Shown piece by piece: positions 440 through 18,579 of a stretch of DNA of 18,579 bases. Every line of letters starts with the position of its first letter. The first letter of the stretch is position 1. The DNA comes from Chthonomonadales bacterium (GTDB lineage: Bacteria > Armatimonadota > Chthonomonadetes > Chthonomonadales > Chthonomonadaceae), in NCBI GenBank assembly GCA_038217285.1, contig JBBQPO010000108.1, forward strand, positions 1 to 18,579, given 5' to 3'. The notes beneath the pieces were generated by a model. The model saw nothing but the letters and a program-made list of their open reading frames with translations. It made no database searches and was not told the origin of the DNA. The position numbers and the translations under genes were made by a program.

Positions 440-481
440 GTCAGGCAATCCACTGGCTCCTTCAGCATACTCCTAAAAACG

Positions 482-1198: not shown

Positions 1199-1229
1199 GG
1201 CGAAGTCTGCCCGCACGGACTCAGTGCCT
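1199..1229. repeat. REP-like palindrome (single copy)
   Basis: GGCGAAGTCTGCCCGCACGGACTCAGTGCCT resembles GGCAAGTCCGCCTTCGCGGACTCAATGCCT at 3937-3966. It lies just downstream of the ABC operon stop. Confidence 0.6.
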
Positions 1230-1242
1230 CTCGGGCGAGGCT

Positions 1243-2028: not shown

Positions 2029-2030
2029 GG

Positions 2031-2849
2031 TCAGGCTCCTACCGACGAGTACTGTCGTATACCCGCCTCCCACAGCGTTCGCAACAGAACGACAGCGACC
2101 ACGAGCCAGACACCCTGCAGCGCAAAACCTGGCAGGATCTGTTCCGGCGGCACCCGGCCCAGCGCCAACTCGACCGGAAAGGAGCCCATAGCACGGAAGG
2201 GGGAGTAGAGCGCAAAGGCCGCGATCCAGGCAGGCATCAGCGCGATGGGCGCGATACGGCCTGCGAGGAAGCTGTCGAGCGTAAAGTAGAGTTGGTTGAT
2301 CGCGTCTACCCGTGTGGTCCAGAAGGCCACCAGGGCCAGCGAGTACTGCAAGACATACCGCAGCACACAGGCGACCGCGAGCGCCGGGATCGCCAACAGC
2401 GAAAACGCATTGAGGACGATGTGCGGTTTTAGGAGCCAGAAGAGAATCGCCCAGACCGGGAGCAGCATCGCACTGGTCGTCAGTTTGAACGCGATATTGG
2501 ACGCGGCGTCGCGGTGGATCGGATGGACCGGCTTGAGCAGCGCCGGGGAGAGTCCGCCGTTCTGCACGCGCATCGCAAACTCGAAGGCGTCCCAGGACAT
2601 CATCAAATGTCCAAAAACCATATAGACCAAAAAATAAGCGGCGAAATCTCCGGCGGCGAACGAGGCCCCGTTCGCCTTGTTGACGATGGTTCCACCCCGC
2701 GCGGCAGAGACGGCCGACCAGACCGCCAGGGAGATCAGCGGCCCTATAAATCCCCAGACCGCCCAGATCAGAATCGTAAAGCGATACTGCAGCATCGAGG
2801 CGATCGCCACCCGCAGATTCGCTCGGTAGAGGTCAAGCCAGTACTTCAT
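2031..2849 (-). CDS. ABC-2 family transporter permease
   Basis: 272-aa multi-TM protein with NGGLSPALLKPVHP and a C-terminal GIRQYSSVGA. It overlaps the 3' end of the ATPase gene. Confidence 0.9.
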   Translation of the reverse strand: MKYWLDLYRANLRVAIASMLQYRFTILIWAVWGFIGPLISLAVWSAVSAARGGTIVNKANGASFAAGDFAAYFLVYMVFGHLMMSWDAFEFAMRVQNGGLSPALLKPVHPIHRDAASNIAFKLTTSAMLLPVWAILFWLLKPHIVLNAFSLLAIPALAVACVLRYVLQYSLALVAFWTTRVDAINQLYFTLDSFLAGRIAPIALMPAWIAAFALYSPFRAMGSFPVELALGRVPPEQILPGFALQGVWLVVAVVLLRTLWEAGIRQYSSVGA

Positions 2850-3834
2850 TTTTGGGCGCCTCCTGAAACACCTGTTCGATAACGGCCTCGATAGGAGGAT
2901 CGGCGACGGTCAGGTCCAGAATCGGCAGATCTTGAAGCAGACGCGCGACCACCGCCGACGTCTCCGTTCGGGGCAGACGCAGGGTCACTTTCAGCCCGTC
3001 CTGCTCCACGACCTCGCCGAACTGCGCGACCAGGGCGGCGGCCTCCGCGTTTTCGACATCCACGGTGACCAGTTTGAAGGGTGCGATGCGTTCCGAAAGC
3101 GCGTCGATGGGGCCATCGTACAGCAGGCGTCCGCGATGAATCACAATGATACGCTTGCAGAGGGCCGTCACATCGGCCATGTAGTGGCTTGTCAGCAGAA
3201 TCGTCGCGCCGTATTTCGCGTTATGCTCTGCGATGAACTGCCGGATACGCACCTGCATGCTGACATCGACGCCCAGCGTAGGCTCGTCCAGAAACAGCAC
3301 TTTGGGCCGATGCAAAAGGGAAGCGGCCAGCTCACACTTCATGCGTTCCCCAAGCGACAAATTGCGTACGGGCTTCTTGATAACATCGCCAAGTTCGAGC
3401 AGTTCGACCAACTCCTTGAGAGTCTGCCGATAGTCCGCCTCGGGGATGGCATAGACCGCCTGGTTGACCGAGAAGGAGTCGAGGGCCGGAATATCCCACG
3501 TCAACTGATTGCGGTTGCCCATCACCAACCCGATATGCTTCAGATAGGCTGGCTCCCGCTTCCACGGCACGTGCCCCAACACATGCGCCTCGCCTCCTGT
3601 CGGGTGCAGTAATCCGGACAGCATCTTCAGAGTGGTCGTCTTCCCAGCACCGTTCGGCCCGAGAAAGCCAACGATTTCGCCCGCCTCCACGGTAAAACTG
3701 ACACTGTCCACCGCCCGCACATCCTTATACTTGCGCTGAAAAAGGCTTCGAATCGAGGCCCCTACCCCGGCCTCACGCTCATGCACCCGATAAACCTTCT
3801 CCAGGCCCTTTAGAACAATCTGTGCTTCCACCAT
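2833..3834 (-). CDS. ABC transporter ATP-binding protein
   Basis: Walker A GPNGAGKTT, signature LSLGERMK, Walker B VLFLDEPT and H-loop LTSH. Start placed at MVEAQ (3834) because of an upstream GGGGAG and because the promoter lies inside the longer ORF call. Confidence 0.93.
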   Translation of the reverse strand: MVEAQIVLKGLEKVYRVHEREAGVGASIRSLFQRKYKDVRAVDSVSFTVEAGEIVGFLGPNGAGKTTTLKMLSGLLHPTGGEAHVLGHVPWKREPAYLKHIGLVMGNRNQLTWDIPALDSFSVNQAVYAIPEADYRQTLKELVELLELGDVIKKPVRNLSLGERMKCELAASLLHRPKVLFLDEPTLGVDVSMQVRIRQFIAEHNAKYGATILLTSHYMADVTALCKRIIVIHRGRLLYDGPIDALSERIAPFKLVTVDVENAEAAALVAQFGEVVEQDGLKVTLRLPRTETSAVVARLLQDLPILDLTVADPPIEAVIEQVFQEAPKNEVLA

Positions 3835-3852
3835 TCGTTTCTCCCCGTCCAC

Positions 3853-3881
3853 ATTATAGCAGACTGCCCGACACATGTCAA
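3853..3881 (-). promoter_or_regulatory. Sigma-70 promoter for the ABC operon
   Basis: Minus strand reads TTGACA (3881-3876), a 17-nt spacer, then TATAAT (3858-3853): a perfect consensus 18 nt upstream of the ATG. Confidence 0.88.
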
Positions 3882-3911
3882 CGCTAATATTTTCGCTCTT
3901 AACGGTGTTCA

Positions 3912-4017
3912 CGGGTTTGAAACCCCGCGCTGAAATGGCAAGTCCGCCTTCGCGGACTCAATGCCTTAACCCGCGAAGGCAGGTTTGCCCTTTCAGAACG
4001 GCAATTCATTGCCGGGG
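3912..4017. repeat. REP-like inverted doublet (REPIN/BIME-like)
   Basis: CTGAAATGGCAAGTCCGCCTTCGCGGACT (3930-3958) pairs imperfectly with AACCCGCGAAGGCAGGTTTGCCCTTTCAG (3968-3996). Flanking mini-hairpins GGGTTTGAAACCC and CGGCAATTCATTGCCG. Confidence 0.75.
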
Positions 4018-4326
4018 AGAGTGTGCACGGGCTACGCAGGGTTGCTTAAGGCCTTCTTTCCTCAAGGTCACACTCCGTGCCACCTTTAGGAAAGCGACGG
4101 CGAGGGGGGAAGTCTCTTCGGTGCGATGAATCGCCGTGAGCTCGGTGGTGGGTTGGGGTTCCTCGAAGTGTCGATAGGCGATTCCCTCGCGGTGCGCGTC
4201 TTGAACGGACGCGGGAACGAGAGTAACCCCCAGTCCTGCGGCCACCAGACTGATGGCTGTGTGGATCTCAGCGGCCTCCTGCGCGACCTGTGGCGAGAAT
4301 CCGGCTCCTTCGCACAGGGAGATGAG
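4006..4326 (-). pseudogene. LysR-family regulator, C-terminal substrate-binding fragment
   Basis: LISLCEGAGFSPQVAQEAAEIHTAISLVAAGLGVTLVPASVQ..GIAYR..ETSPLAVAFL is a typical LysR C-terminus. There is no HTH, and the sequence upstream in this frame is the antisense of an ACP. Confidence 0.8.
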
Positions 4327-4509
4327 GAGCGGATCACTCCGGAGACATCCTTGATAGGAGATCTGGTAGCGGACTCGCTGGACGTCGTGGAGATCACGAT
4401 GGAATTGGAGGAGGCTTTCGATGTGGAGTTTGGAGACGACGCCGTGGCCCTGACCACAGTGCAGCAGATCGTGGACTACATTCAAACCAAACTGGACGAC
4501 CAGCGGTAA
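4321..4509 (+). pseudogene. acpP: Acyl carrier protein, 5'-truncated
   Basis: DEERITPETSLIGDLVADSLDVVEITMELEEAFDVEF..LTTVQQIVDYI contains the DSL phosphopantetheine site. Helix I and the native start are missing and replaced by LysR antisense sequence. Confidence 0.75.
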
Positions 4510-4797
4510 ATAGATGCTGTTGTCAGCCTTTCGACTGCTGCCTGTCACTACCAATAGTCACCCCCCTCGCGAAGCACACGGCCGATCTGGAGGTGCGCGA
4601 GACGGTCGAAGAGTGCCTCCCCTTTCTATAAAGGCACCTGGAACAGGAGCGCGCCAGTCAGACTCTGCTTTGCGCCTCAAGCGCAAGCGGGGCGGATCCG
4701 GCGCTTCTGTTGCGGCTGGCGCAAGAAGCCTCAAAACACGCCCCCAACGAGATATTACGCTCCAGCGCTGCGCCTGAGTCCGATGTCGCAAAGAGCG

Positions 4798-7077
4798 CTA
4801 CTCCAGAAGCAGATACATCGTGTTCGCAGGGAGGGCGAGGGCAAACGTCGCGCCCTGGCGTGTGCCGGTAATCTGGCGGACGGGGTAGCCTGCGGCGTCC
4901 AGCAGAGTGGCGCGGTGGAGGGTGGGATTCTTAATGGCGAGCGTCATCTGCGTGCTGCTGATCTGCCAGGGCATCTTGCCGGTGTTGATGATCTCGAAGC
5001 CGTGGAAGGTCTCCTTGCCGTCGTCGCTCTTGAAGTCGGTGGGCATCGACTGCCAGCCGGTGGGGCGGGCATAGGTGCCAACCTGCACCAGCAGTTTGGC
5101 GGATTCGCGGATAGGCTTGTCGTCGAGTGTCACGACGAGCAGGGTTGCATAGTCGTTGGCGGAGCGCAGGGCCACGTCCGTGAAGTTGAACGAACCGCGC
5201 TTTTTGAGGAACCCGGTGACGCCCTGCGCCTTCGGCGTATCGACGGTGCAGATCCCAAGGCCGTAGTCGAGCTGGATCTCGCCGGTGTCGCTCTTGACGG
5301 TTTTCGCGCCTGCGTCGATGTATTTCGTCATGTCCACCGCTGTGCTCTTGGCAGGATCGCCGCCATACTTGACTTCGACCGGGCCGACGAGAAACGCCAA
5401 CGGGTCGACGCCCTTCTGGATATTGGACCTGTCTACGGTGTTACCGGAGTAGCGGTTTGGGTCGAAACTCTTGTCTTCCGCGATCACGGGAACCTGCCGC
5501 TGCCACATAGAGGCGAGGGTCCGCTCCTCGTGAACCGCAGGCGCGCCCTGCTTGATGTAGCCGCGCCGGAACATGAGGGCGGCGGCCGGGAAGCTTCCCA
5601 TAAGCGTCGGCGTCGCGCATGTCCATTTGTGGAGCGGGTGCTGGCTTCCCTTCAGGTTCAGGAAGGTGAAGTAAGGGTCGGCTTCGTAGTCCGTCGCTTC
5701 GCCCGCGTCGAACCAGTAGAGGCTATCGACGCCGGTTAGAGACTGGTAAGCCGCCATCAGGAACGGCCCTTCGGTCTGACAGCCTTCCGGACTGACCCAG
5801 GTGCTCTCGGTGATCACCATGGGATGACCGACGACCTGTTTAAGGTTGGTCGGCAGCGCGCGGGGATCCAGCAGGCAGGAGTTGAGCGTAAAGTGGTGGC
5901 CGGGATCGATGCGCCAGCCGTTATTGTCGCCGGTATGCACCCCGCCCGTATATTTATTGACCGCCAGGACGTCGGCGGCCGTATAGGTCCAGCGCTCCAG
6001 GTCGTTGAGCCGAACCGGATCGGCGGTGATCCAGTTGGAAGCGTTGATCAACTGCTTGCAGCCGAGGTCCTTGTGGTAGTAGTCGGCGATGTCGGTATAG
6101 AACTGACGCTGCGTCTCCGCAAAAAACCGGGTCTGATCGTCGAGACGCCGTGCCACGCCGCCGGTCTGAGGCTGCGTGAACATCCAGGTGTCGTAGAGGC
6201 CGACCGAGCCCTTCGCGAAGTCGTCCTGATCGGTATGGGTGCCTTCCCAGGCCTGCCCGGCCTTCGCCAGAGTGCCGTATTTCTTGGTGAGCCACTGGCC
6301 GAACTTGCGCCCCAGGACCAGCTTCTGGGGCGCGTGCAGCCCCTGCATCGTCCAGAAGAACATCCCGTCCTCATTCTGCACCTGAATCAGCGCCACCGCC
6401 GGATCTTTCGCGAGGGGGATGCCGGTGTGCGGATTGGTCCGTGCGTAGAGCGCCTTGACCCAGGCGCGGTAGCCGACCTGGAGCTTCTCGTTAAAGAAGA
6501 GCACGCCCCAGAGGTCAGTGCTGCCGGTATAGCCATCGATGCCCCATTCGGTCGCCTTCTTGCCGTTTGCCCAGTAGGGAGATATCGTGGTATAGATCCC
6601 CTCTTTTTTCATGGCAGCGACGCAGTTCCAGATGCCGTCGATCTCCTTCTCGTTGACTGCGGTGATCGGGCCGTCCTTGTCGGGAGCGATCTGCGTATGC
6701 AGCCGGACCATATTGACGCCGATTCGCGCCAGGAATCGGGCCTGCTTCGCCATCTCTTCCGGCGATTTCCGGTAGATGTCAGAGCCGACAGACCAGAAAC
6801 GCACAGGCTGACCGCTGCCCAGAGCGAAGCCGCTACCATCAGGCGAAAGCTTGACGAACCCGGTCTCCCCGGCGATCTTCTCATTCAGGAAGCGCAGGTC
6901 GAGCAGCGCGCCGGGGCGAGACGTGTCGGCGGGATAGGTGAAGGGCCATGTGCCTGTTCCAATGGGCTCCGCACGCTGGCCGGGTGTGGCAACTGGGGCG
7001 AGGAGCGCGCCCACCGCCAGCGCCAGGGAGAGTTTGGAAAGCAAAGCAGGACGGAAGGCCCGTTGGTGGCTGTTCAT
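4798..7077 (-). CDS. Secreted glycoside hydrolase, clan GH-A-like (GH5-related TIM barrel) with C-terminal extension
   Basis: 759 aa with an N-terminal signal-like segment. Motifs GVNMVRLH, NPHTGIPLAKDPAVALIQVQNED (candidate acid/base Glu) and PMVITES (candidate nucleophile Glu). Confidence 0.75.
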   Translation of the reverse strand: MNSHQRAFRPALLSKLSLALAVGALLAPVATPGQRAEPIGTGTWPFTYPADTSRPGALLDLRFLNEKIAGETGFVKLSPDGSGFALGSGQPVRFWSVGSDIYRKSPEEMAKQARFLARIGVNMVRLHTQIAPDKDGPITAVNEKEIDGIWNCVAAMKKEGIYTTISPYWANGKKATEWGIDGYTGSTDLWGVLFFNEKLQVGYRAWVKALYARTNPHTGIPLAKDPAVALIQVQNEDGMFFWTMQGLHAPQKLVLGRKFGQWLTKKYGTLAKAGQAWEGTHTDQDDFAKGSVGLYDTWMFTQPQTGGVARRLDDQTRFFAETQRQFYTDIADYYHKDLGCKQLINASNWITADPVRLNDLERWTYTAADVLAVNKYTGGVHTGDNNGWRIDPGHHFTLNSCLLDPRALPTNLKQVVGHPMVITESTWVSPEGCQTEGPFLMAAYQSLTGVDSLYWFDAGEATDYEADPYFTFLNLKGSQHPLHKWTCATPTLMGSFPAAALMFRRGYIKQGAPAVHEERTLASMWQRQVPVIAEDKSFDPNRYSGNTVDRSNIQKGVDPLAFLVGPVEVKYGGDPAKSTAVDMTKYIDAGAKTVKSDTGEIQLDYGLGICTVDTPKAQGVTGFLKKRGSFNFTDVALRSANDYATLLVVTLDDKPIRESAKLLVQVGTYARPTGWQSMPTDFKSDDGKETFHGFEIINTGKMPWQISSTQMTLAIKNPTLHRATLLDAAGYPVRQITGTRQGATFALALPANTMYLLLE

Positions 7078-7108
7078 GGTTAGATTCCTCTATCAGCGCT
7101 TCTGGAAT

Positions 7109-10100
7109 TTATTTCGAAGCGGGCTTTGTGTCCGGCAGGGCGAAGGCGATGTAGGCATCGCCGCTTTTGGTGCGTAGTTTGCCGCCGCCACCGGCCGCGA
7201 TGACGACATACTGCCGACCGTTTACTCGATACGTGGAAGGCGTGGCGTAGCCTCCGTTCGGAAGCTTGAACTCCCAGAGCAGACGGCCCGTCGCCTTGTC
7301 GAAGACGTGAAACTTCTCGTCTTTGGTGCCTCCGATGAAGACCAACCCGCCCGCCGTGACGACAGTGCCGCCGAAGTTCTCGGTACCGGTCTGCGGGACG
7401 CCTTTGGCGGTCAGCTCGGGATATTCGCCCAGACGTATCTGCCAGGCGAAGGTGCCGGTGTTCAGGTCGATGGCAGTCAGGCTCCCCCACGGCGGCTTGT
7501 TGCCGGGATAGCCGAGCTGGTCGTTGAAGTAGGTGTAGCCGCCGAAATCGTAGCCCCCGGCGGCATTGGGCCGGATTACGGAGATATAGGCAACGTTATT
7601 GGAGTTGACGTAGAGCAGGCCCGTTGTCGGATCGAAGGAACCGCCGCTCCAGTTGGCGCCACCGTGGAAACCCGGAGAGACGACGGTTCCCATCGTCGTC
7701 GGCGGGGTGTAGGGCTGACCGTACCGCAGACCGCGCAGCATCTGCGCGACATAGTCATGCGATTCCGGGGAGATGTCGGTGATCTGGTCTGCGGTGAAAT
7801 AGCCGCGTGAGAACGGCGGCGGTCTGACCGGTTCGGGCTGCGTCGGGTGCGCCTGCTCGCCGGGAATGTCCGAGGGCGTTGAAGGCTTCTCCACGACATC
7901 GAAGAGGGGCTTGCCGGTCAGGCGGTCGAAGAGGTAGCAGAAGCCGGTCTTGGTGAGCTGCGCGACCGCTTCGACTCGTTTGCCGTTGTGCAGAACGGTG
8001 ACGACGATGGGCGGACAGGGGTTGTCGTGGTCCCACAGGTCGTGATGGACCGCCTGGAAGTGCCAGAGGCGTTTGCCGGTGCGGGCATCGAGGGCGATAG
8101 TGCAGTTGGCGAACAGGTTCGCGCCTTTACGATCCGCACCGTAGAAGTCAGACGCGGCGGAGCCCAGTCCGGCGAAGAGAATGCCGTGTTTATCGTCGAG
8201 CGTATAGCCGGACCAGGCGTTGACGCCGGTGCGATCTTTCCAGCCGTCGCCCTCCCAGGTTTCGCTGCCGACCTCACCCGGCCGTGCGACCGTGTGGAAC
8301 CGCCAGACCTCCTTCCCGGTGCGGACATCGAAGGCGCGCACATCGCCCGGCGCGCCGGGCTGCCCTTCGGAAACCAGAAAGCCGGTGTAGACCAGGTTCT
8401 CGAAGACGGCAGGCGCGGAGGTGACGCCGTAGGCCGTGCCGCGAATATCGCGCTCGATCCCGATCCGTAGGTCCAGGATGCCGTTCTTGCCAAAGGCAGG
8501 GTCGGGTATGCCCGTATGCGCGTCGAGGGAGAAGAGGCGACCGTCCGGCGTTCCCATCAGGATACGGCGTTGGCCCTTCGGCTTGCCGTCCGTCCAGTAG
8601 GCGACACCGCGGTTGACGCCACCGGAATGCGTGCTGTATTTCCAGATCTCGCGCCCGGTCGCGGCGTCGAGCGCGACGATTTTGAGGTCGGCCGTCGTCA
8701 CGTACATCACGCCGTCCACGACGACCGGCGTACACTCGATGGTGCTGCCGGGCGAGGCGCCTCCGCCGTGGTAGGTCCAGGCGACTTCAAGCCGTGCGAC
8801 ATTGCTCCGGTCGATCTGATTTAGCGTCGAGAAACGCATCCCGCCCTTGTCGTTGCCGACATTGAGCCAGTCCAGAGAAGTGCGCCTGTCCACGACCGGC
8901 AGCGGCCCGGCAGGGGTCGGATTCTGCTCGGCGACGACGGCAGTCTCACCCCGGCGTCGGGCCGGGTTGTTCAGGCGTCCCATATCCGCATAACGCCCCT
9001 GCTCCAGAGCGTCGAAGCGCCAGAGTCCTAACGAGGCGTCTTCCAGAGGGAGGGGGGCGACTGGTACTGCTTTGATGTCGAGCGCCGACTGAGAGATTCG
9101 CACGTCGTCGATCAGGCCATCACAGCCGATCTCGCCGGAGACCAGACTGCCGAACGCCAGTTCACCGGGCTGCGAGGTACCGACGTTCGCGACAATCGCC
9201 TGATCCACGGCCTGCCTGCCGTCTACATAGAGACGCACACGACCGGCCGTGTAGACCATCGCCAGGTGGTGCCAGTGGTCGTCGCAGACATCGAAGCCGG
9301 AACGGACATGGTCCGGTGTCACGCCTGGCATATAGACCGTAAACTGCCCGGTCTGTGCGAAGGTAAACATCTCCCAATGGGTGCTGGAGCTCTTGTCTTC
9401 ATTCGCGACCAGGATGTTGAAGTTGGTCTTCGAGTGTATTTTGGCCCAGCACTCGACCGTGAGCGGGGGAGTGCGGTAGGCCACGCGGCCCGGCGCGAAC
9501 GCCCCACCGACGCGGGCGTCGAGGGCTTTCCCGAACCGTCCTTCCGCCAGAGGCTCTCCGGTCACTTTCGCCTGATTTTTCGCCGTCTGGAGCGACTGTT
9601 CGACGGTCCACTGGCTGCCCACTCGGAAGGGCGCGTTGGTGACCAATGCTATGGGCGGATCGAAGCTGAGCCGGTCGAGGCGTGCGGCCCAGGCTGCCCC
9701 TCGCCGGATCAGCGCCCCTGCGCTGCGCACCGCTGGCCCATCGTGCCCGAGCATCGTCTGAAAGATTCGCCCCTTCCCATAGAGATAGGTCCAGGCCAGT
9801 GGTTCGTCCTGGCCGGTCACTTTGGAGTGTGCGGTAACCAGGGGCACAATGGGCTGATCCCCGACCTGCTTGAAGTAGAGTTCGTCCGTGGTGTCGAACG
9901 CCTTCAGTCCGGCGGTGATGGGATCCTTCGTTGGGGCAACATCGACATGAAATGGGCCGTAGGGGTCGTGACCGCTCGGCAGGTCATGCATCCAGGCGCG
10001 GCGGACGATGCGGGTCCGATACTCTTTCCACTCCGACTCTTTGTTGGGCAGGGTGTAGTTGAAAGCGCCGTTGGCGAAATGAATGATCGCCAGGCCGCCG

Positions 10101-11203
10101 CCGTTTTCCAGGTAGCGGACAAATCCGGCCTTCGCCGCCTCGCTCAGACCGGGGCGATCCCAGTTGTTGTAGTTCATGACAAGCAGATCGTAGCCCGCGA
10201 TTTTGGGCGTCACAAGGTCTTCGATCTGTTCGGTGACATCGACCTGGAGGCGTGGATCCTGTTCGAGCGTCTGAATCAGGGCGGCGGTCAACTGCCGCCA
10301 GTCGTGGCCGGGATGATGGTAACCGGTCAGGATCAACGCTTTCACCGGCTGTTCCAGCCGCGAATCGACTCCGCCCGCTGGTACCTCGACGCCCGCCGTC
10401 CAGACGATAGCGTTCAGGATCAGACGCCGATAGTCGGGCAGCCACCAGTTTTTGAAGAAGTGTCCGCCGGTGTAGCCGAAGCCGCGCCCGCCATCCTTAC
10501 GCTGAACCGCCCAGCCCACCGGATAGTCGGTCGATTCGTTCGGCGGACGGCTGAGCAGAATCGGAGTCACCCGCGCATCGTCGGGCTGGAAGCGAATCTT
10601 ATAGTAGAACTCCTCTTCCACGGTAAAGGGCTTGACGCCGCGCAGTATCGGACTTGTAGCCGCGCCGAGCGTAACGGGAGCCGTATAGGTCTGAATGGCG
10701 GAGTACCAGTGGTTGGGCGCCGTTCCGGTTTCGTAATCGAAATAGCCGCCGACCCAGTCGGTGATCTGGGCCTGGAACCGGCTCGGGGCGAAGGTAGACC
10801 AGTGGAACTCCATCAAACCGCAGCCACGGCGCATTTGCCGCTCGATCACCTTCAGCCGGTCACCCACATAGAGCGGATGGTCGGCCTCATTGCGGTCGCT
10901 GCCATCGGTGACGAAGACGATGGTGTCGGCATCGTCGAGAGTGCGTTCGTCTTCGGGCCAGCCGTGAAAGCAGGCCTCCGTCCGCACGTTTTTGAGATTC
11001 GGGGCGGTGTCGAGCAGGGTCTTGAGCAGGATCACGCTCTTCTCGTATTCGTGCGTCTGCTTGTCGTGTCCGATCATCGACCCAGCGATGAGGACGATCT
11101 TCCGCATTCGCACTGCCGGGGCCGCACTCACCACGCCTGTCGTCAGACTCAGCGTTATCCCTGCCGCCAGCGCCCACATCCAGGTTTTCAAAACCAGGTG
11201 CAT
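7109..11203 (-). CDS. Secreted multidomain protein: two ThuA-like domains, LamG/concanavalin-like domain and PQQ-dependent glucose/quinate dehydrogenase-like domain
   Basis: Signal peptide; ThuA-like 1 (KIVLIAG..GGRGFGYTGGH); ThuA-like 2 (KALILTGYHHPGHDW..GKGRIFQTMLGH); LamG (LTVECW..DDHWHHLAMVY..GLIDDVRIS); PQQ propeller (RFSTLNQIDRSNVARLEVAW, NRGVAYW, HHDLWDHD, GGANWSG, PPWG, GTENFGG, YATPSTY). Confidence 0.88.
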   Translation of the reverse strand: MHLVLKTWMWALAAGITLSLTTGVVSAAPAVRMRKIVLIAGSMIGHDKQTHEYEKSVILLKTLLDTAPNLKNVRTEACFHGWPEDERTLDDADTIVFVTDGSDRNEADHPLYVGDRLKVIERQMRRGCGLMEFHWSTFAPSRFQAQITDWVGGYFDYETGTAPNHWYSAIQTYTAPVTLGAATSPILRGVKPFTVEEEFYYKIRFQPDDARVTPILLSRPPNESTDYPVGWAVQRKDGGRGFGYTGGHFFKNWWLPDYRRLILNAIVWTAGVEVPAGGVDSRLEQPVKALILTGYHHPGHDWRQLTAALIQTLEQDPRLQVDVTEQIEDLVTPKIAGYDLLVMNYNNWDRPGLSEAAKAGFVRYLENGGGLAIIHFANGAFNYTLPNKESEWKEYRTRIVRRAWMHDLPSGHDPYGPFHVDVAPTKDPITAGLKAFDTTDELYFKQVGDQPIVPLVTAHSKVTGQDEPLAWTYLYGKGRIFQTMLGHDGPAVRSAGALIRRGAAWAARLDRLSFDPPIALVTNAPFRVGSQWTVEQSLQTAKNQAKVTGEPLAEGRFGKALDARVGGAFAPGRVAYRTPPLTVECWAKIHSKTNFNILVANEDKSSSTHWEMFTFAQTGQFTVYMPGVTPDHVRSGFDVCDDHWHHLAMVYTAGRVRLYVDGRQAVDQAIVANVGTSQPGELAFGSLVSGEIGCDGLIDDVRISQSALDIKAVPVAPLPLEDASLGLWRFDALEQGRYADMGRLNNPARRRGETAVVAEQNPTPAGPLPVVDRRTSLDWLNVGNDKGGMRFSTLNQIDRSNVARLEVAWTYHGGGASPGSTIECTPVVVDGVMYVTTADLKIVALDAATGREIWKYSTHSGGVNRGVAYWTDGKPKGQRRILMGTPDGRLFSLDAHTGIPDPAFGKNGILDLRIGIERDIRGTAYGVTSAPAVFENLVYTGFLVSEGQPGAPGDVRAFDVRTGKEVWRFHTVARPGEVGSETWEGDGWKDRTGVNAWSGYTLDDKHGILFAGLGSAASDFYGADRKGANLFANCTIALDARTGKRLWHFQAVHHDLWDHDNPCPPIVVTVLHNGKRVEAVAQLTKTGFCYLFDRLTGKPLFDVVEKPSTPSDIPGEQAHPTQPEPVRPPPFSRGYFTADQITDISPESHDYVAQMLRGLRYGQPYTPPTTMGTVVSPGFHGGANWSGGSFDPTTGLLYVNSNNVAYISVIRPNAAGGYDFGGYTYFNDQLGYPGNKPPWGSLTAIDLNTGTFAWQIRLGEYPELTAKGVPQTGTENFGGTVVTAGGLVFIGGTKDEKFHVFDKATGRLLWEFKLPNGGYATPSTYRVNGRQYVVIAAGGGGKLRTKSGDAYIAFALPDTKPASK

Positions 11204-11327
11204 CTTCGCCTCCTCATCCGCCGAAGAGGCCGCGTCGCCTCTCCCACGAACCTGCCCGTTATCGTTCGTGGCATTCTATTCACTATCGCAGCGAAGATTC
11301 CCTGTGCCGTTCGAAGTGTTACTCATT

Positions 11328-11343
11328 TGGCACGATTTGTGCA
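11328..11343 (+). promoter_or_regulatory. Sigma-54 (-24/-12) promoter
   Basis: TGGCACGATTTGTGCA matches TGGCACG-N4-TTGCW with exact GG-N10-GC spacing and one mismatch. It lies about 75 nt upstream of the PEP-CTERM gene. Confidence 0.7.
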
Positions 11344-11416
11344 GTGATAATAATAGACCTGATGCCAGAGCAAAACAGTTCGTTAGGCCTTCTAATGATA
11401 TGCAAAGGAGAACATC

Positions 11417-12160
11417 ATGACGTGCCGCCCATCTGTCCGAAATATGTTTCTATCCGTTTCTATAAGCCTGCTTGGTTTTGTCGGTACTCCACGTCTCGCC
11501 TTCGGTCAGGCCAACCCGCTTCCTTCCGGCAGTACGATTCCCGGCACCTCCTGGCAGGTGCAATACGCTGGTCCGATCTCCCTGTCGTTTGATGCGTCGC
11601 AAAACGGATTTAGTACTAAGGGTACCCTGATCGAGACGACGACGCGCAATAACATCGATCCCCTGACGATCAGTTTCCAGCAGGTGTTCGAGACCTCAAC
11701 GTCGAGTGTTTCCGGGGGTCTGCGCCTGCTTTTTAAGGAGACAGTGACCAACCAGTCGACGAAGGACTGGGCCGGTTATACCATGCAGTTGATCGACAAC
11801 ACTCCAGCCCCGAACAATCCCCCGAGTGATTCGCATCCGCCAGAGCCACATTTTCATCCGAACGATTCCGGAGCGACCTTCCCACCCTTCAATCCTGTAA
11901 ATCTCCCTGATCCCGCCACTACTCTCAACATTGGCGATGGCATCAATAAGGTCGCCATTGGCGGGGACTTCAACGTGACGAGTCTGCTGCTCCACGAGAG
12001 GCAGTTTGCCATCGGCATCATTCCCGACCCCGGACGAAGAACATTCGACCTGGTGGAGACGCCAATCCCGACTCCGGAGCCAGGAGGCGTCGCTCTCGTC
12101 GCCACGCTGGTGCTGGTCGGAAGTGTGTCGCTGCGAAATCGCCGCAGAAAGACCGTCTGA
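11417..12160 (+). CDS. PEP-CTERM sorting domain-containing surface protein
   Basis: AAGGAG RBS, an N-terminal signal-like segment, an S/T/P/N-rich body, and a C-terminal PTPEPGG followed by a hydrophobic helix and RNRRRK. Confidence 0.9.
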   Translation: MTCRPSVRNMFLSVSISLLGFVGTPRLAFGQANPLPSGSTIPGTSWQVQYAGPISLSFDASQNGFSTKGTLIETTTRNNIDPLTISFQQVFETSTSSVSGGLRLLFKETVTNQSTKDWAGYTMQLIDNTPAPNNPPSDSHPPEPHFHPNDSGATFPPFNPVNLPDPATTLNIGDGINKVAIGGDFNVTSLLLHERQFAIGIIPDPGRRTFDLVETPIPTPEPGGVALVATLVLVGSVSLRNRRRKTV

Positions 12161-12361
12161 GCCTGCCGTAAGGTAAGCATGGGAACCGCCCTTGACTGGC
12201 GAGTTCCGCCGCTGATCATGTATGGCATGTCATCAGAGTGGGGAGCAGTCTACCGCTTCCCACTCTATTTTGTGAGAAGCGAGTCTATCAGCGCCGACAC
12301 ACAGGCAGTCTTAAGAAGGCTTAGAACCGAGGGGCGACAAAAACCGACTGACAATGAACCC

Positions 12362-13945
12362 GCTCAGCAATGCCGGGGCGTTCGGCAACGTCGGCTTGTA
12401 GTCTAAACGTCAAATGTCAAGGATCAGCCTTTAAACAGGATCATGGGCCGACTGCAAGATCTATTTGGGCACGGTACACTGCCGCCCTGGTCCTGTGAAT
12501 GACTCAGAACCACCGAAGAATCCAAGCAGCCGGTCTACTATCTGAGACGTACTCGTCATGGGATAGACGAAGAAGAGGCGCTTCTGGACGTGCCACGTCA
12601 GACCTGCCTTCGCTGGCTAAAAGAACTGAAGAGTTATACCCGACTGCCCAAAGAGGAACAAGCGAAGTTTCGAGCGGAGTGCCCCTGTCTCCAGGCATGC
12701 ATTCGCACCGGGGAGGGTTTACTGGACGGTGAATGCCGCCCCCTCGGCGAAGCCTTCGCTGCCCTGGCAGACAGCCAAATGGAGGCGCTTCTGGACCAGA
12801 GCAGCGTTGACCTGCCCAATCTTATTTTTTCTCCGGAAGCTCAGGGGGTCTTAAGAATTCCGTCCACTCCTAACGGGGTACCCAATAGCAGTTCCACGCT
12901 CGGCCAATCTACTTCCGGTGCAATCCTGCGGTTGGAGCGCGAAGGTGAAAGTGAAATGAACAGTGTGTACTTTATGAGCGTCAATCCACATAAAAATGCG
13001 TACTGCACTCGTAGTTTTATCTTCGACACGCAGAGGCAGTTGACAGGGTTGCTGGACACCGAGGAGATGCAACTGCCGCCGACCGCGCAGCAGAGTCCCG
13101 TAGTAGACCTCTTCGCCCATCGGCAAAGCCAGGCGTCCGCCAATCCTTCGTCCATGACGCTGGAAACGGCCTTGCAGTTGATTGCGAAGGAATCGGGCAT
13201 TTCCGTCTACGCGGAGGTGTTTCCCAAATGGCCAATCCAGGTAGACCAGACAAAAGGGACGCCAGAGCAGTTGATTACTCTCCTCTGCGCCAAAGCAGGC
13301 TATCGCTGGCGCAAGGTCGGCAAGGACGTTTTAGTTTACAGTAGGTCCTGGGCCCAGGACCGTCAGGCAAATGTCCCTCAGCCGTTGCTTGATCGGTGGC
13401 TGGCTAACTTCGTTAAGGAACCGCCAAACTATTATCGCTCCACAATTCCGCCTCGGTTGAAGTCAGAAGGGGTCCGAATGTGGAGCAGTAATTCTTGGGA
13501 GTTGCCTAAGTACGGACACCATGGGTTTCCCGATCTGTTAGAGATGGCACGTCTGCGGGATGGACAGGTCAGAAACCTGATCCATTGGATGGATGTTCAA
13601 GCTCCGCTGTCGAATCGCAATTTGGGATGTATGCGTGTGCTGGGAGCGCTCGCGCCTGCTGAACTTCGGTTCGCTTTCGACCCCCAAGGGCAACTTGTGG
13701 GTACACTGGACGGCTCCGTCTTCGCTATTTTGCAGAAGGAGTTCAAGCACATGGTTAGTTTACCCATCCTTGTTAGTTTACCCATCCTTGTTTTCATCCA
13801 ACGCGATCCCGACCAGACCTATCAGGATCAGAATGGAAAGCCTATCGCCCGTAAGAGCACTACAGTAACGCTCCAGGATCAAACAGGCATGATAAAGAGA
13901 TACTCGATCATCGAGCCGTCTGAACGGCCTCATTATAGGCAATAG
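12362..13945 (+). pseudogene. Hypothetical protein with a degraded 5' end; the intact portion is ORF 12590..13945
   Basis: The same frame reads as protein-like upstream of the GTG at 12590 (NVKDQPLNRIMGRLQDLFGHG..WSCE*LRTTEESKQPVYYLRR) across TAA 12404-12406 and TGA 12500-12502. An internal segment LETALQLIAKESGISVYAE resembles STN/secretin-N modules. The 5' boundary is approximate. Confidence 0.5.
13754..13792 (+). repeat. In-frame 18-bp tandem duplication
   Basis: GTTAGTTTACCCATCCTT twice plus GTT, giving VSLPIL-VSLPIL-V. Confidence 0.95.
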
Positions 13946-13983
13946 TCGGCAGAATAACTATGCCGGTGTCACGCACCGATCCA

Positions 13984-14012
13984 GTGCCATGCGATGGGAA
14001 ATGGCGTATAAT
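13984..14012 (+). promoter_or_regulatory. Candidate sigma-70 promoter for the selenoprotein gene
   Basis: GTGCCA (13984-13989), a 17-nt spacer, then TATAAT (14007-14012). Confidence 0.45.
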
Positions 14013-14144
14013 GCAGGCAGGGTTATCTTGGGCGACGCGGATACCCCGATCACAGAACCTGGATCGGCTGTTTGTGCTGCGTCTGCCCTCAGGTTGAAAG
14101 CAAAAGGGGAATCCGGCAGCACACTACCGGGAGGAGTAAATTCT

Positions 14145-15182
14145 ATGCAGAAACGACCGATTTTTCTGGCTTTGCCCTGGCTGTGCGTCGTGGGCGGCGG
14201 ACTGTCGAGTCCTGCCGTGCAGGCGCAGAGTCGGGCCGAGCTCGTCTCGAAGGGCGAACGCTTCGAAATCAAGCAGGTTCTAAAGGCAGAGGGCACGACC
14301 GTGGTCCTGTTCGTGCAGGAGACGAGTGTCATCGAGCAGCAGTTCTTGACCGACCTTAAGACGCAGTTGCCGAAGGACGACAAGGTGATCCTGGATGTGG
14401 TGCGCCTGAAGGCCCTCACGGCGCCAGTGGCTCTGCAATATAGGATCAAAGCGACGCCGACGGCCATCGTCTACGATCGCTTCGGACGGGAGCTTGCCCG
14501 CACCTCGCAGCCGGACGAGATTCGCGCGGGAGTGCGCAAGGGCATGTTGATGGGGCGCATCAAGTGGATCGATGAAGACGATCCCAAAGCGCCAGAAGTC
14601 TACGGAGCGCCTCCGGAGGCGCTGAAACAGGGGATCCCTGGCATTGTGAAGACGATGGCGCTCCGCCCGGAAGCCTACAAGATGTTCAACATCATGTCGC
14701 AAATCCACTTTTCAGACGGCTTCCTGAAGCGGCGGGAGCATGAGATGATCGCCGCCTATGTCTCCTCGCTCAACAAGTGCAAATTTTGACTGGGCTCACA
14801 TGCTGCCGCGTTGCGGGAGCAAAATGTAGACCAGGATCTCGTCGATGCGATCGGCACCGGCGACCTGAGCAAAGTAAAACTGACGCCAAAGGATCAGGCG
14901 CTGCTGACCTACGTCAAACTCTTGACCCTGAACTCCGCGCATACGCAGGACGCGGACGTACAGACGATGCGGGAAGCCGGTTGGACGGACGAACAGATTT
15001 GGGAAGCCTCCTTCGAAGTAGGCATGTTCTCCTTCCTCAATCGAATGTCCGACGCGCACGGCCTCGACTATCCGAAGGGCGGATGGATGCCGCCGCAACT
15101 GCGCGCACAACTGGAGCAGGCAAAGCCGGCACAACCTGAGCAGGCAAAGCCCAAGGAACCAGGAGGCGTCGCCCCACGTTAA
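14145..15182 (+). CDS. Predicted selenoprotein: signal peptide, Cys-less thioredoxin-like domain and AhpD/CMD-like peroxidase-related domain with CxxU (UGA at 14787-14789, codon 215 of 345)
   Basis: GGAGGAG RBS before the ATG at 14145. EMIAAYVSSLNKCKF-TGA-LGSHAAALREQ continues in frame into ORF 14811..15182, which encodes the second half of the AhpD-like fold (LTPKDQALL..AGWTDEQIWE..FSFLNRMSDAHG). A stem-loop follows the UGA directly. Confidence 0.88.
14790..14834 (+). promoter_or_regulatory. Putative bacterial SECIS element
   Basis: By-eye fold: CTGG/CCAG, TC/GA, ACAT/ATGT, GCT/AGC, a G.G mismatch, then CCGC/GCGG closing a GTT loop (14810-14812). The loop starts with G and begins 20 nt after the UGA. 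Confidence 0.65.
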
Positions 15183-15248
15183 GGCGGGAAACTCGTTGAT
15201 GGCGCAGACCGACGCCATCGTGAACCAGGCGTTCCAGGAGGTGTTGGC

Positions 15249-16223
15249 ATGAGGGTACTTCAGGCAGAACCGCAGGACTGGCCGAAGGCGATAGAAGAGG
15301 CCCGAACTTTGGGATGTGAGGCGATGGCATGGGCCCTTACGTCTCCGGTCGGGGAGGCCGTGCTCCAGGCGACGCAGGCAGCAGGACTGGAATCGCATGC
15401 CTGGCTGCAGGTCGCGCGTGACCCATCCGCCGTGGCGCAGCATCCCGAGTGGATGCACTGTCCTCAGCACCACGAATGGCTGACGCGCTTTCCCGACTAT
15501 TCGGGCGGGCATCCGGCCGTCGTCGCGCCCTACCTCGGCCTGAATACGCAGGCCGCTTTTCAGTACGCCCTCGCCACGGCCAGACAGAAGATCGAGGCCG
15601 CGCCCTGGGCGCGGCGGGTCTGGCTGGCCGATATTCAAGGTCCGCCGATGGGCTGTGGATGCGGCAATCCGTCCTGTCGCAGTTGGGACAATGCGCCGGG
15701 GCCGAAGCTTGCCAGCACCCCCTACGATCGTCCGGAAGTTCTGTTTCCTCTGGAGTTCTCCACCGCGCTCACGGCGGCGCTGCCGAACCGAGACGTTGTG
15801 CCCGTCCTCTGCCCGGAGTGCGAGCGGTTTATCGATCTCGACGGTGTGCCGGATCCGGACGGCCCGCAGGGCACGGACCTGTGCCAGGGAATCCCCTGCG
15901 GCGACATCTGCACCCTCCAGTATTTTCCCAGTCTGCTCGCCGGTTTCCGCCGACAGGGTGGGCAAATCGGGCTGCTCTTGATGGTGGACGCACTGGAGAA
16001 GAACCATCCTGTGTTCGGCGCGCCTCGCCAATGGGCGATGCACGCCCACCGACACTACGGAACGGATATGATCGCCTGCGTCGAACTCGAGGACGCGGGC
16101 CGGTTCGATAAGGCGCTGATCTTAACGAACGCTCCGCAGGACTGCTGGCCGGTTCCTCCCCCACCCGGCTATCGTGCCGAAGTTCCGCCGATAATGTGCG
16201 GCTACTGCCCGCCTGTGTTCTGA
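15249..16223 (+). CDS. Cysteine-rich hypothetical protein, possibly metal or Fe-S binding
   Basis: AGGAGGT RBS; 324 aa with clusters HCPQHH, CGCGNPSC, CPEC, CQGIPCGDIC and CGYC. No obvious signal peptide. Confidence 0.8.
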   Translation: MRVLQAEPQDWPKAIEEARTLGCEAMAWALTSPVGEAVLQATQAAGLESHAWLQVARDPSAVAQHPEWMHCPQHHEWLTRFPDYSGGHPAVVAPYLGLNTQAAFQYALATARQKIEAAPWARRVWLADIQGPPMGCGCGNPSCRSWDNAPGPKLASTPYDRPEVLFPLEFSTALTAALPNRDVVPVLCPECERFIDLDGVPDPDGPQGTDLCQGIPCGDICTLQYFPSLLAGFRRQGGQIGLLLMVDALEKNHPVFGAPRQWAMHAHRHYGTDMIACVELEDAGRFDKALILTNAPQDCWPVPPPPGYRAEVPPIMCGYCPPVF

Positions 16224-16410
16224 CCGGTTCATCTGCGCCTGCAAGCGCTCCCTGAGTTCTTGAGCGTCGGTACTCACTACGGATGCTCTCCCTCTTTCAC
16301 GAATATTTCGATGGCCTACGAAGCAGGCAGTCCGCCTCTTCACGTCTCGCTAGGAGAAACGGGAAGAGGCGGACCGGTATCCGATAGACGCAAGTTTGCA
16401 GGGCTCGCCC

Positions 16411-16947
16411 CTACTGTAGCATCGCGTCGACGGCCTTCTCGACCTGGGGCAGTTTGGCTGCATCCACGTCTACGAAATTGCCTTTGATCGATCCCCTCCA
16501 GATGAGTACCGTGTTTTTGGCGGAGGGGCTGATCTTGTAGGCCGCGATGTCCTCTTCGTTGACGCCCTTGGGCAGAAAGACGAGCGGGATGGTGGTTTTG
16601 TTGTCGGCCGCGATCTTCTGAATGGCGTCTTTTGCTTCGGGACCGCTCATGAAGACCACGAAGCTCTTGAGGCGCTTGGACTTATGGCTGTCGACCATTT
16701 TCTGAATGTCGGCCACCAGCTTGGTCGCCTTGGTCGCGTCGCCGTTCACGAAGACAGCGACAACGGGGGAGGCGCCGTAGGCGCAGCGATAGCAGAGTTC
16801 CTTGCCCTTGTGCGGCCCGGTGACATCGACCACCTGGAACGCGCCCGGAAATGCGCCCGGCTTGAGCCCTGACTCTACGGCGGCGAAAGCGGTCACGGCG
16901 AGCATACTTGCGGCGGCCACGAACAGGCCCAGTTTCAGTTTCCTCAT
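16411..16947 (-). CDS. Secreted thioredoxin/redoxin-like protein with CxxC (CYRC)
   Basis: AAGGAG RBS, signal peptide ending AFA, and SGLKPG..AFQVVDVTGPHKGKELCYRCAYG..PVVAVF, which resembles a redoxin-like N-terminus. Confidence 0.75.
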   Translation of the reverse strand: MRKLKLGLFVAAASMLAVTAFAAVESGLKPGAFPGAFQVVDVTGPHKGKELCYRCAYGASPVVAVFVNGDATKATKLVADIQKMVDSHKSKRLKSFVVFMSGPEAKDAIQKIAADNKTTIPLVFLPKGVNEEDIAAYKISPSAKNTVLIWRGSIKGNFVDVDAAKLPQVEKAVDAMLQ

Positions 16948-17078
16948 TCAGTCGTCTCCTTGTGTCATCCGGCGCAGAAGCCGGGCTGGATGTCGGGCGC
17001 ACCCGAGAGTACGGGCGCAGCACCGGTAGTGCGGCCCGATGAAAAAGGGGCCGATGCGTGCGAGCGCGTTAAAGCGCC

Positions 17079-18578
17079 TCATAGTTCTCTTACGTATTCG
17101 AGAAGGTCTTTTCTCTCCGCGTCAGACAGTTCGTGCGCCTTCCCATGCATCTTTTTCGGGTTCTGCTCCGAAAATACCTCCTCCAGGGTCCGTGCCTTGC
17201 CATCGTGGAGGTAAGGGTCCGTGTCGTAGACTCCGTCCAGCCGAGGCACTTGCAGGTCCATGCCCGGAGGCGTCGTACCGATCCATGCTTTCTGCCGCCC
17301 ACCCGCGCGAGGGCCGGAATGGCACGATACGCAGCCGGCTTTGCCCTCGAACAGCGCTTTGCCGCGCACGGCCGGGGCGGTGAAGGCGTTGTCGGATGCG
17401 CGGAACGGGTTCAGGGTCAGCGGCAAAGATCCCACGTAAGCCGCGAGGGCATGAACCTCGGCAGGCGTCGGTTTTTCTCCCTGGAGAAGACCCGGTATCT
17501 CCTCCTCGATAAAGCGCTCCAGACTGGGTTCGTGGCCGCTCCAGCGATACGGGCCGCTCTCCCCGATGTGGCCACGCAGACCTTTCGCGTTGCGGTCGAT
17601 CTCCTTCCCCAGCGCGTCCTTCACATGCACGAACTTCCAGGAGATGCCGTCGGTGCCGCCGTCCGGATGGCAGGAGTTGCAGCTGAACTGCCCGCCCTTG
17701 ACGATGGTCGCCGTCGTGAACAGATACCGACCCAGCAGCGTGGGGTCTTTTCGGGCTGTCGGCCCCAGATTGATTCGGCGCGTTATGCGCAGCGACTGCG
17801 GATCGACGACCGCCAGATCGTTGCCGAGCATATTCGCAACCCAGAGCTCTTTTCCGTCCGGCGTGAAGGCCAGGCCGGACGGATGCGCGCCGATGTTCCG
17901 TACCGTCAGGGTGTTCCCGTCGCCGCTTACAGGAACGATATTGAGGCTGTGGCCGCCGCTGCAGGTCACAAAAGCCCGTCTGCGCTGCGCATCCAGAACG
18001 ACGGAGTCCGGATCAGCGACATCCTGGCCCATCAGGTCGAGCCAGAGGTTCTGGACGCCGTTGCGGGGACCGTCCGGAACTTGAAGGAACGCCTGATTGG
18101 ACCAGATCCCGATCGAGGTCTCCGTCGGCCTCTCGTTCTGGGCGCGCTGCCCGACGACGAACGCCTGACGCCCGTCCGGAAACACGGCGATTCCGCGCAG
18201 GTTTACGGCGGGCGTCCGCCCCTGCGCGGTTTCGATGCGGGTGGCGGTGTCCAGGTAGCTGATGGAGCCGGCGGTCATGTTCGCGGTGACGACCGTCGCG
18301 CCATCGGGGGTGATGGCCAGCGCGCGGGGTCGGCGACCGGTCGGGATCGTGCCCACGATCTTACGCGCCGCCACATCTATAATCGCGACCTGATCGAGTT
18401 GGCTGACCGAAACGTAGGCGCGGGCTCCATCCGGCGACAACACCACATCCCACGGCGCGCCCCGAAGCGGCAGAATCTCTGCCTTGCAGGCGTTCAGATC
18501 CACAAAGGCGACGGAGCCGCTGAGGCTGTTGGTCACGACCGCTAGCGCGCCATTCGGAGTGACTGCAACCCCCGTCGG
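17079..18578 (-). CDS. YVTN-type beta-propeller plus di-heme cytochrome c (cytochrome c peroxidase/MauG-like C-terminus); 5' end lies outside the window
   Basis: Propeller repeats (PTGVAVTPNG, PWDVVLSPDG, PRALAITPDG, PSGLAFTPDG), two CxxCH motifs (CNSCH, CVSCH), and PYLHDG..TLEEV..DLLEYVREL. The frame is open to the window edge. Confidence 0.88.
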   Translation of the reverse strand, partial: PTGVAVTPNGALAVVTNSLSGSVAFVDLNACKAEILPLRGAPWDVVLSPDGARAYVSVSQLDQVAIIDVAARKIVGTIPTGRRPRALAITPDGATVVTANMTAGSISYLDTATRIETAQGRTPAVNLRGIAVFPDGRQAFVVGQRAQNERPTETSIGIWSNQAFLQVPDGPRNGVQNLWLDLMGQDVADPDSVVLDAQRRRAFVTCSGGHSLNIVPVSGDGNTLTVRNIGAHPSGLAFTPDGKELWVANMLGNDLAVVDPQSLRITRRINLGPTARKDPTLLGRYLFTTATIVKGGQFSCNSCHPDGGTDGISWKFVHVKDALGKEIDRNAKGLRGHIGESGPYRWSGHEPSLERFIEEEIPGLLQGEKPTPAEVHALAAYVGSLPLTLNPFRASDNAFTAPAVRGKALFEGKAGCVSCHSGPRAGGRQKAWIGTTPPGMDLQVPRLDGVYDTDPYLHDGKARTLEEVFSEQNPKKMHGKAHELSDAERKDLLEYVREL

Positions 18579-18579
18579 C

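Follow-up and report, generated by a model that had tools for sequence, protein, structure and literature searches.

An in-frame UGA at the catalytic site of an AhpD-like gene from Chthonomonadaceae probably encodes selenocysteine

Why should an open reading frame (ORF) end inside a catalytic motif, and do so at the same place in nearly all of its listed close relatives? The question is raised by a gene in an 18,579-nucleotide stretch of DNA from a Chthonomonadales bacterium (Armatimonadota; Chthonomonadaceae; assembly GCA_038217285.1, contig JBBQPO010000108.1, positions 1 to 18,579 of the forward strand), which was analysed as a whole and is called the window here. Two ORFs on the forward strand, 13989..14789 (266 aa) and 14811..15182 (123 aa, TTG start), share one frame and are parted by a single TGA at 14787..14789. 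A first-pass annotation, made from the letters alone, had proposed that this UGA is read as selenocysteine (U), joining the two ORFs into one AhpD-like enzyme with a CxxU active site. The evidence collected here makes it very probable that one 345-residue, presumably secreted AhpD-like selenoprotein is encoded across the in-frame UGA. All features of the gene given below lie on the forward strand.

The single frame was directly visible. The DNA around 14787-14789 reads ...AAC AAG TGC AAA TTT TGA CTG GGC TCA CAT..., and the whole coding sequence, 14145..15182, translated with TGA as U, gave 345 residues followed by the true stop codon TAA (15180..15182). It contains one recoded codon (U215, in the context ...EHEMIAAYVSSLNKCKFULGSHAAALR...). 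The ORF list, the sequence and this translation agree with the two ORFs split by one TGA and with the 345-residue product that the annotation had described.

The joined protein was compared with family models. It scored above the curated cut-off of NCBIfam TIGR01926 "peroxidase-related enzyme" (94.4 bits vs. 81.8, residues 163-304), above that of Pfam CMD, PF02627 (E 4.6e-13, 49.4 bits vs. 23), and above that of the TIGR00778 core domain (38.9 bits vs. 27.8), which places it in the AhpD/CMD superfamily and, by sequence, in the TIGR01926 subfamily. The predicted AhpD-like catalytic domain (CMD fold) covers residues 163-311 (14631..15077), as judged from TIGR01926, PF02627 and the structure PDB 6k40. 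The active-site motif E200-x11-C212-K-F-U215-L-G-S-H219 was complete in the TGA=U translation. Its four columns are invariant in an alignment of 11 full-length relatives, and they hold E, C, C and H in most of 150 representatives (those of the 150 top-ranking clusters when 1.84 billion proteins were searched). Glu200 (GAG, 14742..14744) is a conserved acidic residue 12 positions before C212, and nearly every representative with coverage there has E. Cys212 (TGC, 14778..14780), the first residue of CxxU, is presumed to be the resolving cysteine; residue 215 (TGA, 14787..14789) is presumed to be the nucleophile; His219 (CAT, 14799..14801) belongs to the CxxU-x3-H motif and is likewise conserved in the representatives. 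With the cut-offs passed and the motif present, the AhpD-like identity first proposed for the product was borne out.

The TGA falls on the second cysteine of the CxxC pair. The best matches by sequence among solved structures were PDB 6k40 (E 2e-21) and 2oyo (E 1.5e-20), and when LNRCVYCAVSH of 6k40 is aligned to LNKCKF(U)LGSH of the window protein, the TGA column is the second Cys. This column holds Cys in 107 of the 112 representatives that cover it. The first-Cys column holds Cys in 99 of 111, and the SxxC, NxxC, TxxC and AxxC variants all retain the second Cys. The second Cys is the better conserved of the pair, and the TGA codon therefore sits on the better-conserved cysteine. In the AhpD of Mycobacterium tuberculosis the second Cys is said to be the nucleophile, reportedly in the work of Koshkin et al. 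2003. The position of the TGA on the second catalytic Cys of CxxC-x3-H, as the annotation had it, was thus supported by the alignment to 6k40 and 2oyo and by the representatives. Cys or selenocysteine had also been expected in this column in homologues, and the relative P0002 (336 aa, 65% identity) has Cys, with CKFCLGSH.

An AlphaFold model was built from the 11 full-length sequences (mean column identity 69%), and its mean predicted local distance difference test score (pLDDT) was 64.6 over the whole model. Residues 175-304 were modelled as helices (block pLDDT 74-92), consistent with the all-helical AhpD fold. A structure search with the model found 6k40_A as the best match in the PDB (E 8e-9, template-modelling (TM) score by target 0.66, root-mean-square deviation 1.9 Å over 135 columns, 35% identity).

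Next, we asked what stands at this column in related genomes. A scan of genome contigs gave 12 loci, 10 of them labelled Chthonomonadaceae or Chthonomonadales, one "bacterium" and one Candidatus Melainabacteria. They hold 13 homologous sites (locus L011 has two genes), and the codon was TGA at 13/13 sites and TAA or TAG at 0/13. [LVI]-[GE]-S-H follows in frame at all 13. The open frame continues for 114-137 codons past the TGA in 11 of the 13 sites; of the exceptions, L007 meets a TAA after 57 codons, and the second copy in L011 runs off the end of its contig. Protein databases gave the same picture. Of 148 significant matches 120 were listed (57-90% identity). All of these but P0002, 119 in number, measure 190-249 residues and stop at N-x-C-[KR]-[FY], a single residue short of the column. 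Among the 150 more distant representatives, 18 end at the same column and four start at the residue directly after it. The observation is far above chance, because the same stop occurs at the same column in 13/13 DNA sites and in 119 of 120 listed relatives. The TGA is consequently conserved in related genomes and not peculiar to this strain, and gene callers do split the gene, as the annotation had anticipated.

Selection was then compared on either side of the TGA in a codon alignment of 10 genes, which left out L007, the second L011 copy and L012, all incomplete, and P0002, available as protein only. Pairwise differences at the three codon positions were.21/.14/.53 upstream and.18/.13/.51 downstream. 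The ratio of nonsynonymous to synonymous substitution rates (dN/dS, Nei-Gojobori) was 0.115 upstream and 0.119 downstream. The ratio is nearly equal on both sides, and translation must hence continue in this frame past the TGA; the claim that the frame after the TGA is coding stands, with purifying selection like that upstream.

These results bear on two rival explanations. One of them makes the gene a pseudogene, or takes the TGA for a TGC or TGT that was misread in sequencing or assembly. TGA is one base away from either codon, and two loci look damaged, namely L007, with its early TAA, and L012, which lacks the N-terminal part. The presence of the same TGA at 13/13 sites in independent assemblies, the end of 119 of the 120 listed relatives at the same column and the downstream dN/dS of 0.119 nevertheless leave this explanation effectively refuted. 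As to the two loci themselves, the gene in L007 (10622-10798) meets its TAA 57 codons after the TGA, yet the tblastn match reaches residue 327, which suggests a frameshift or an assembly error there; in L012 (740-1456), from the metagenome-assembled genome labelled Candidatus Melainabacteria, the first ~109 residues are missing in frame.

In the other, the TGA is a true stop, and a 214-residue N-terminal protein is followed by a protein of ~123-130 residues whose translation restarts by stop-start coupling. The codon directly after the TGA is GTG, a possible start, in 11 of the 13 sites, the TTG at 14811 opens the 123-aa ORF in the window, and both halves are stored as separate database entries. 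Against this, the next codon is CTG, which is no start, in the window and in L002, and the window shows nothing like a Shine-Dalgarno sequence ahead of the TGA. The break would moreover fall inside CxxC-x3-H and part C212 from H219 within one domain, full-length Cys forms of the protein exist (P0002, P0122, P0125, P0127, P0129 and P0130), and ordinary termination does not require that the stop be TGA at all 13 sites and never TAA or TAG. Termination with restart is therefore very unlikely.

A third explanation is that the genetic code has changed genome-wide, with every UGA read as an amino acid (table 4 or 25). Three representatives could reflect gene calling under such codes, with W (P0222) or G (P0194 and P0187) at the column. 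TGA is, however, the commonest stop codon in the window and loci, where it ends 73 of 140 long non-overlapping ORFs. Genes of the window that have Pfam support end in it (the ABC ATPase at 2833..3912 and the cytochrome c protein at 17079..18536), and so do five orthologues of the gene under study. A genome-wide code change was rejected on these grounds and has practically no chance of being correct. P0222, P0194 and P0187 were perhaps called with TGA as Trp or Gly, and may hence be further hidden selenocysteine forms.

If UGA is recoded at this one codon, a signal in the mRNA would be expected to mark it. A hairpin resembling a selenocysteine insertion sequence (SECIS) was found at 14802..14820, 12 nt after the UGA, with an eight-position stem (in the window, seven pairs plus a G-G mismatch) that encloses a GUU loop at 14810-14812. 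In 13 sequences neither the loop nor five of the eight stem pairs vary. Positions 18 and 32 are paired in 13/13 by four types of pair (CG 6, UA 3, UG 3, GC 1). Across the 13 sequences 94.2% of hairpin cells are paired, and two pairs covary. The covariation score was 0.197; shuffles gave 0.087, none of the 500 reaching the score of the alignment, and slid controls gave 0-0.08. RNAalifold found the same stem. Variation at third codon positions was 0.27 over the first 12 codons past the TGA vs. 0.54 farther downstream; this halving of synonymous variation over the hairpin fits an RNA constraint on top of the coding sequence. The short AhpD-like paralogue in L011 has a hairpin of its own, 14-30 nt from its own UGA, with an unrelated stem sequence of 7 bp and the same GUU loop, and is an independent case of the element. 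The case for the hairpin rests on conservation, covariation and position, not on thermodynamics, and its placement where a bacterial SECIS is expected is supported by these comparisons.

On the favoured reading the UGA at 14787-14789 is not a stop, because the hairpin reprograms the ribosome. By analogy with known bacterial SECIS elements, it would bind SelB with Sec-tRNA(Sec), and selenocysteine would be inserted at residue 215. The redox centre C212-K-F-U215, with His219 and Glu200, would replace the usual CxxC of the family. The selenol, which occupies the position of the second and better-conserved Cys, would react with a peroxide or with an oxidised partner. The result would be a selenenylsulfide to C212, for some reductant to open. 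The proposal that UGA stands for selenocysteine in an AhpD-like enzyme is supported by the Cys column, the conserved TGA, the downstream selection and the covarying hairpin.

Several points weigh against it. The identity of the stop codon is known from the 13 DNA sites and not from the 119 short database proteins. In the hairpin, positions 19 and 31 are paired in 8 of 13 sequences and unpaired in 5, and it is here that the window has its G-G mismatch. Its folding energy was unexceptional (z=-1.13 over 64 nt, -0.6 to -1.2 over five 45-nt stretches). Rfam models, run over the full window with gathering thresholds and over 14600-15000 with E values as high as 10, gave no SECIS or other credible RNA family. 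The 13 hairpin sequences are moreover few, related and protein-coding, and part of their conservation is protein constraint. A search that covered the 18.6-kb window and the 12 loci (~155 kb) found no gene for tRNA-Sec, SelA, SelB or SelD. Finally, the evidence at the level of the mRNA fits insertion of selenocysteine and of cysteine alike.

The last point leads to the most serious rival. The UGA and its hairpin could be decoded, wholly or partly, as Cys by a SelC*-type tRNA (tRNA-ReC) via SelB, and the product would be a CxxC protein or a mixture of Sec and Cys forms set by selenium supply. A passage of PMC13582414 describes tRNA-ReC-like tRNAs beside canonical SelC in 5/5 Armatimonadota genomes with UXXU-type hydrogenases, and cites Vargas-Rodriguez et al. 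2018 for the decoding of UGA plus SECIS as Cys. Conservation of the TGA, the hairpin and the selection would all be equally well explained, and Cys works at this column in relatives (P0002, and 107 of 112 representatives). The same genomes in PMC13582414, described at the level of the phylum, also had canonical tRNA-Sec, however. Moreover, the TGA is kept at 13/13 sites though a single base change would give TGC or TGT, and the codon presumably provides something that Cys codons do not. Cysteine insertion is thus improbable.

Selenocysteine insertion remains by far the better supported, and support from outside this gene family was looked for as well. ARAGORN, run on the window and the 12 loci, found no tRNA-Sec, the sole tRNA being a tRNA-Leu in L012. 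The flanking ORFs were compared with NCBIfam (58 proteins) and with Pfam (64 proteins); neither SelA, SelB or SelD nor any conserved neighbour turned up, and for want of conserved neighbours the gene is considered to stand alone. Long open frames of the window and loci were also screened mechanically for further TGA codons adjacent to a Cys, and the protein-like matches all came from this gene family. In the literature, a passage of PMC13582414 describes Armatimonadota genomes that have Sec-type hydrogenases together with canonical SelC; this is support at the level of the phylum only. Our literature search on Armatimonadetes and selenocysteine found no paper on the topic. The deep-Sep paper mentions neither AhpD nor Armatimonad, and no mention of Armatimonadota was found in the searched text of two 2026 selenoproteome papers. 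The supplementary table of BSepDB, in which Armatimonadota occurs 75 times and Chthonomonad four times, was rejected as evidence for selenocysteine, since Table S1 comprises all 64,762 genomes analysed. The internal evidence of the sequences suggests that soil Chthonomonadaceae (Armatimonadota) decode selenocysteine.

How the truncated and Cys forms are related was examined in a quick, unrooted maximum-likelihood tree of the shared N-terminal part. Its 48 rows were the window protein, every fourth of the 119 close truncated forms (30 in all), 10 of the 18 distant ones and seven Cys or Ser forms. P0002, a Cys form, was nested among truncated forms, in a clade with 99% support. At least four changes of state lay on well-supported branches, and several of the Cys rows had long branches. 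The tree shows only that Sec and Cys states are interspersed, which a passage in PMC1794560 describes as usual for thiol-oxidoreductase selenoproteins.

Paralogues occur in two of the genomes. The short AhpD-like gene in L011 (6580-7158, +) encodes 192 aa, scores 116 bits against TIGR01926 and has its TGA in the same Cys column (NRCFY-U-IESH). It lies directly upstream of the long form (L011:7253 onwards), and because it adjoins the long form and carries a TGA, L011 appears to hold two selenoprotein genes in tandem. The metagenome-assembled genome SMAG_U9801 has two copies of the long form on different contigs (L001 and L004), with TGA in both and 75% and 74% identity to the window protein.

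AhpD-like proteins with CxxU are an established selenoprotein family, catalogued since 2005-2006. Table 1 of PMC1794560 lists an "AhpD-like (COG2128)" selenoprotein, a table of PMC2398784 on ocean samples lists "AhpD-like 1" with 299 selenoproteins and 902 Cys homologues, and a table of PMC13188914 lists "AhpD-like protein, TIGR01926, CxxU". The annotation had called them a recognised class, and the last two tables agree. AhpD-like 1 (COG2128/TIGR01926, CxxU; Global Ocean Sampling and Sargasso Sea) resembles the window protein in its domain family, in a CxxU with selenocysteine at the second Cys and in its mixture of Sec and Cys forms. The TIGR01926 model, however, is single-domain (178 positions), whereas the window protein, from Chthonomonadaceae, has ~160 extra N-terminal residues.

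Among proteins of known structure, DR1765 of Deinococcus radiodurans (6k40) and its homologue from Deinococcus geothermalis (2oyo) have the motif LN-x-C-x-[YF]-C-x-x-SH-x-AALRE in common with the window protein. They differ from it in carrying Cys and not selenocysteine, and they are single-domain proteins of 196-197 residues without a signal peptide or a thioredoxin-fold domain. The review PMC8945050 states, where it treats DR1765, that the deletion strain is more sensitive to H2O2 and that the CxxC cysteines matter for complementation. DR1765 is the closest characterised relative, and by analogy with it Sec215/Cys212 would reduce a peroxide or an oxidised partner protein. The reaction would take place outside the cytoplasm if the predicted signal peptide is real.

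Two other models were considered. NF041238, AhpD_rel_CFYUT (357 positions), is likewise two-part, with an AhpD-like C-terminal half and CxxU chemistry, and window residues 163-311 align to its positions 175-337. Membership was rejected, as the score of 49.3 bits is below the cut-off of 175, the N-terminal half is unaligned, and the motif is CKFUL and not CFYUT. The AhpD of M. tuberculosis (TIGR00777 type) has the same Glu...CxxC...His arrangement as the window protein, which scores 21.2 bits against TIGR00777 (cut-off 191.95). According to a passage of PMC8945050, AhpD is a cytoplasmic, Cys-containing protein whose partners are AhpC and lipoamide enzymes. The Pfam and NCBIfam matches of the ORFs near the window gene include neither ahpC nor a lipoamide gene. 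Neighbouring genes differ at every locus and give no hint of a partner or reductant. It is well supported that the window gene is a mis-annotated member of a well-known selenoprotein family and no new kind of system. It is distinguished by its lineage, its predicted signal peptide, its putative Cys-less thioredoxin-fold domain and by the storage of the subfamily almost wholly as truncated hypothetical proteins.

The ~160 N-terminal residues lie, by sequence comparison, outside the known AhpD-like family. A Sec-type signal peptide is predicted by inspection at residues 1-28, MQKRPIFLALPWLCVVGGGLSSPAVQAQ (14145..14228), with a basic N-terminus, a hydrophobic core and an AxA-like end (AQAQ). This pattern is common to all 11 aligned relatives, and pLDDT is <50 for residues 1-34. 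Residues ~45-139 (14277..14561) form, in the AlphaFold model, a strand-helix-strand-helix-strand-strand-helix domain (block pLDDT 65-87), and a Foldseek search of the PDB matched it to thioredoxins (E 2e-4 to 8e-4, 95-104 columns, TM score by target 0.56-0.63). Pfam gave no thioredoxin match for the window protein and weak matches only (E 0.035-0.19) in the relative P0125. This putative thioredoxin-fold domain lacks the CxxC redox motif, there being no Cys from residue 29 up to C212; S61 and E64, near the position of the thioredoxin CxxC, are invariant in the 11 sequences. Cys-type relatives have the same two-domain layout (P0122, P0125, P0127, P0129 and P0130 with CxxC, P0128 with SxxC). The layout suggested by this medium-confidence model and by inspection of the sequence runs from a signal peptide through a Cys-less thioredoxin-fold domain and a linker to the AhpD-like domain. 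Our literature search found no description of such an architecture, with the supplements of the two 2026 selenoproteome papers outside its scope. A speculative and improbable extension is that the protein is an exported two-domain module, in which the Cys-less thioredoxin-fold domain docks or binds the substrate for a periplasmic CxxU centre, with Sec or Cys (from a tRNA-ReC-type tRNA) inserted according to selenium supply. If true, it would be a selenium-tunable extracytoplasmic peroxide or disulfide reductase from one gene, in a lineage not so far noted for selenoproteins.

The start of the gene was placed at ATG 14145, as in the annotation. A Shine-Dalgarno-like GGAGGAG (14130..14136) lies 8 nt before this ATG. 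Where a candidate start lay in range in another locus, a GGAG-type site stood ahead of the equivalent start (11/11); neither L012 nor the short L011 paralogue gave a candidate. A promoter-like site, GTGCCA-17-TATAAT (13984..14012), matches the consensus at 10 of 12 positions; this consensus match is weak evidence, the scan having found one site where 0.3 were expected in shuffles. The GGAGGAG upstream, the similar sites in the 11 loci and the promoter-like match at or after 13989 all speak for ATG 14145 and against 13989, where the mechanical ORF begins.

The genes that flank it, 12590-13945 (+, 451 aa) and 15249-16223 (+, 324 aa), have no Pfam or NCBIfam match and are not kept beside orthologues elsewhere. 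Farther away, 7109-11203 (-) encodes a 1364-residue fusion of ThuA, LamG/concanavalin-like and pyrroloquinoline quinone (PQQ)-dependent dehydrogenase beta-propeller parts, which does not reach the cut-off of any named NCBIfam family of PQQ dehydrogenases. The product of 17079-18536 (-) combines a beta-propeller with cytochrome c/MauG-like haem domains and has a weak similarity, far below cut-off, to hydrazine synthase subunits; a 470-aa ORF with no family match overlaps it on the opposite strand. The ORF at 4006-4554 (-) matches a LysR regulator in its C-terminal substrate-binding part only, and it overlaps the ORF at 4126-4509 (+), which has a phosphopantetheine-attachment (carrier protein) match; the two are rival candidate genes.

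The finding leaves knowledge of selenocysteine decoding unchanged; its consequences concern annotation and the lineage. The window gene and more than 100 relatives are stored as "hypothetical proteins" of 208-214 residues cut at the catalytic residue, and their domain, active site and selenium dependence are thereby invisible to automated analyses. Chthonomonadaceae would have at least two kinds of AhpD-like selenoprotein gene, the long form and the short form seen in L011. The predicted signal peptide and the fusion to a putative Cys-less thioredoxin-fold domain suggest a function outside the cytoplasm, as yet undescribed for AhpD-like proteins.

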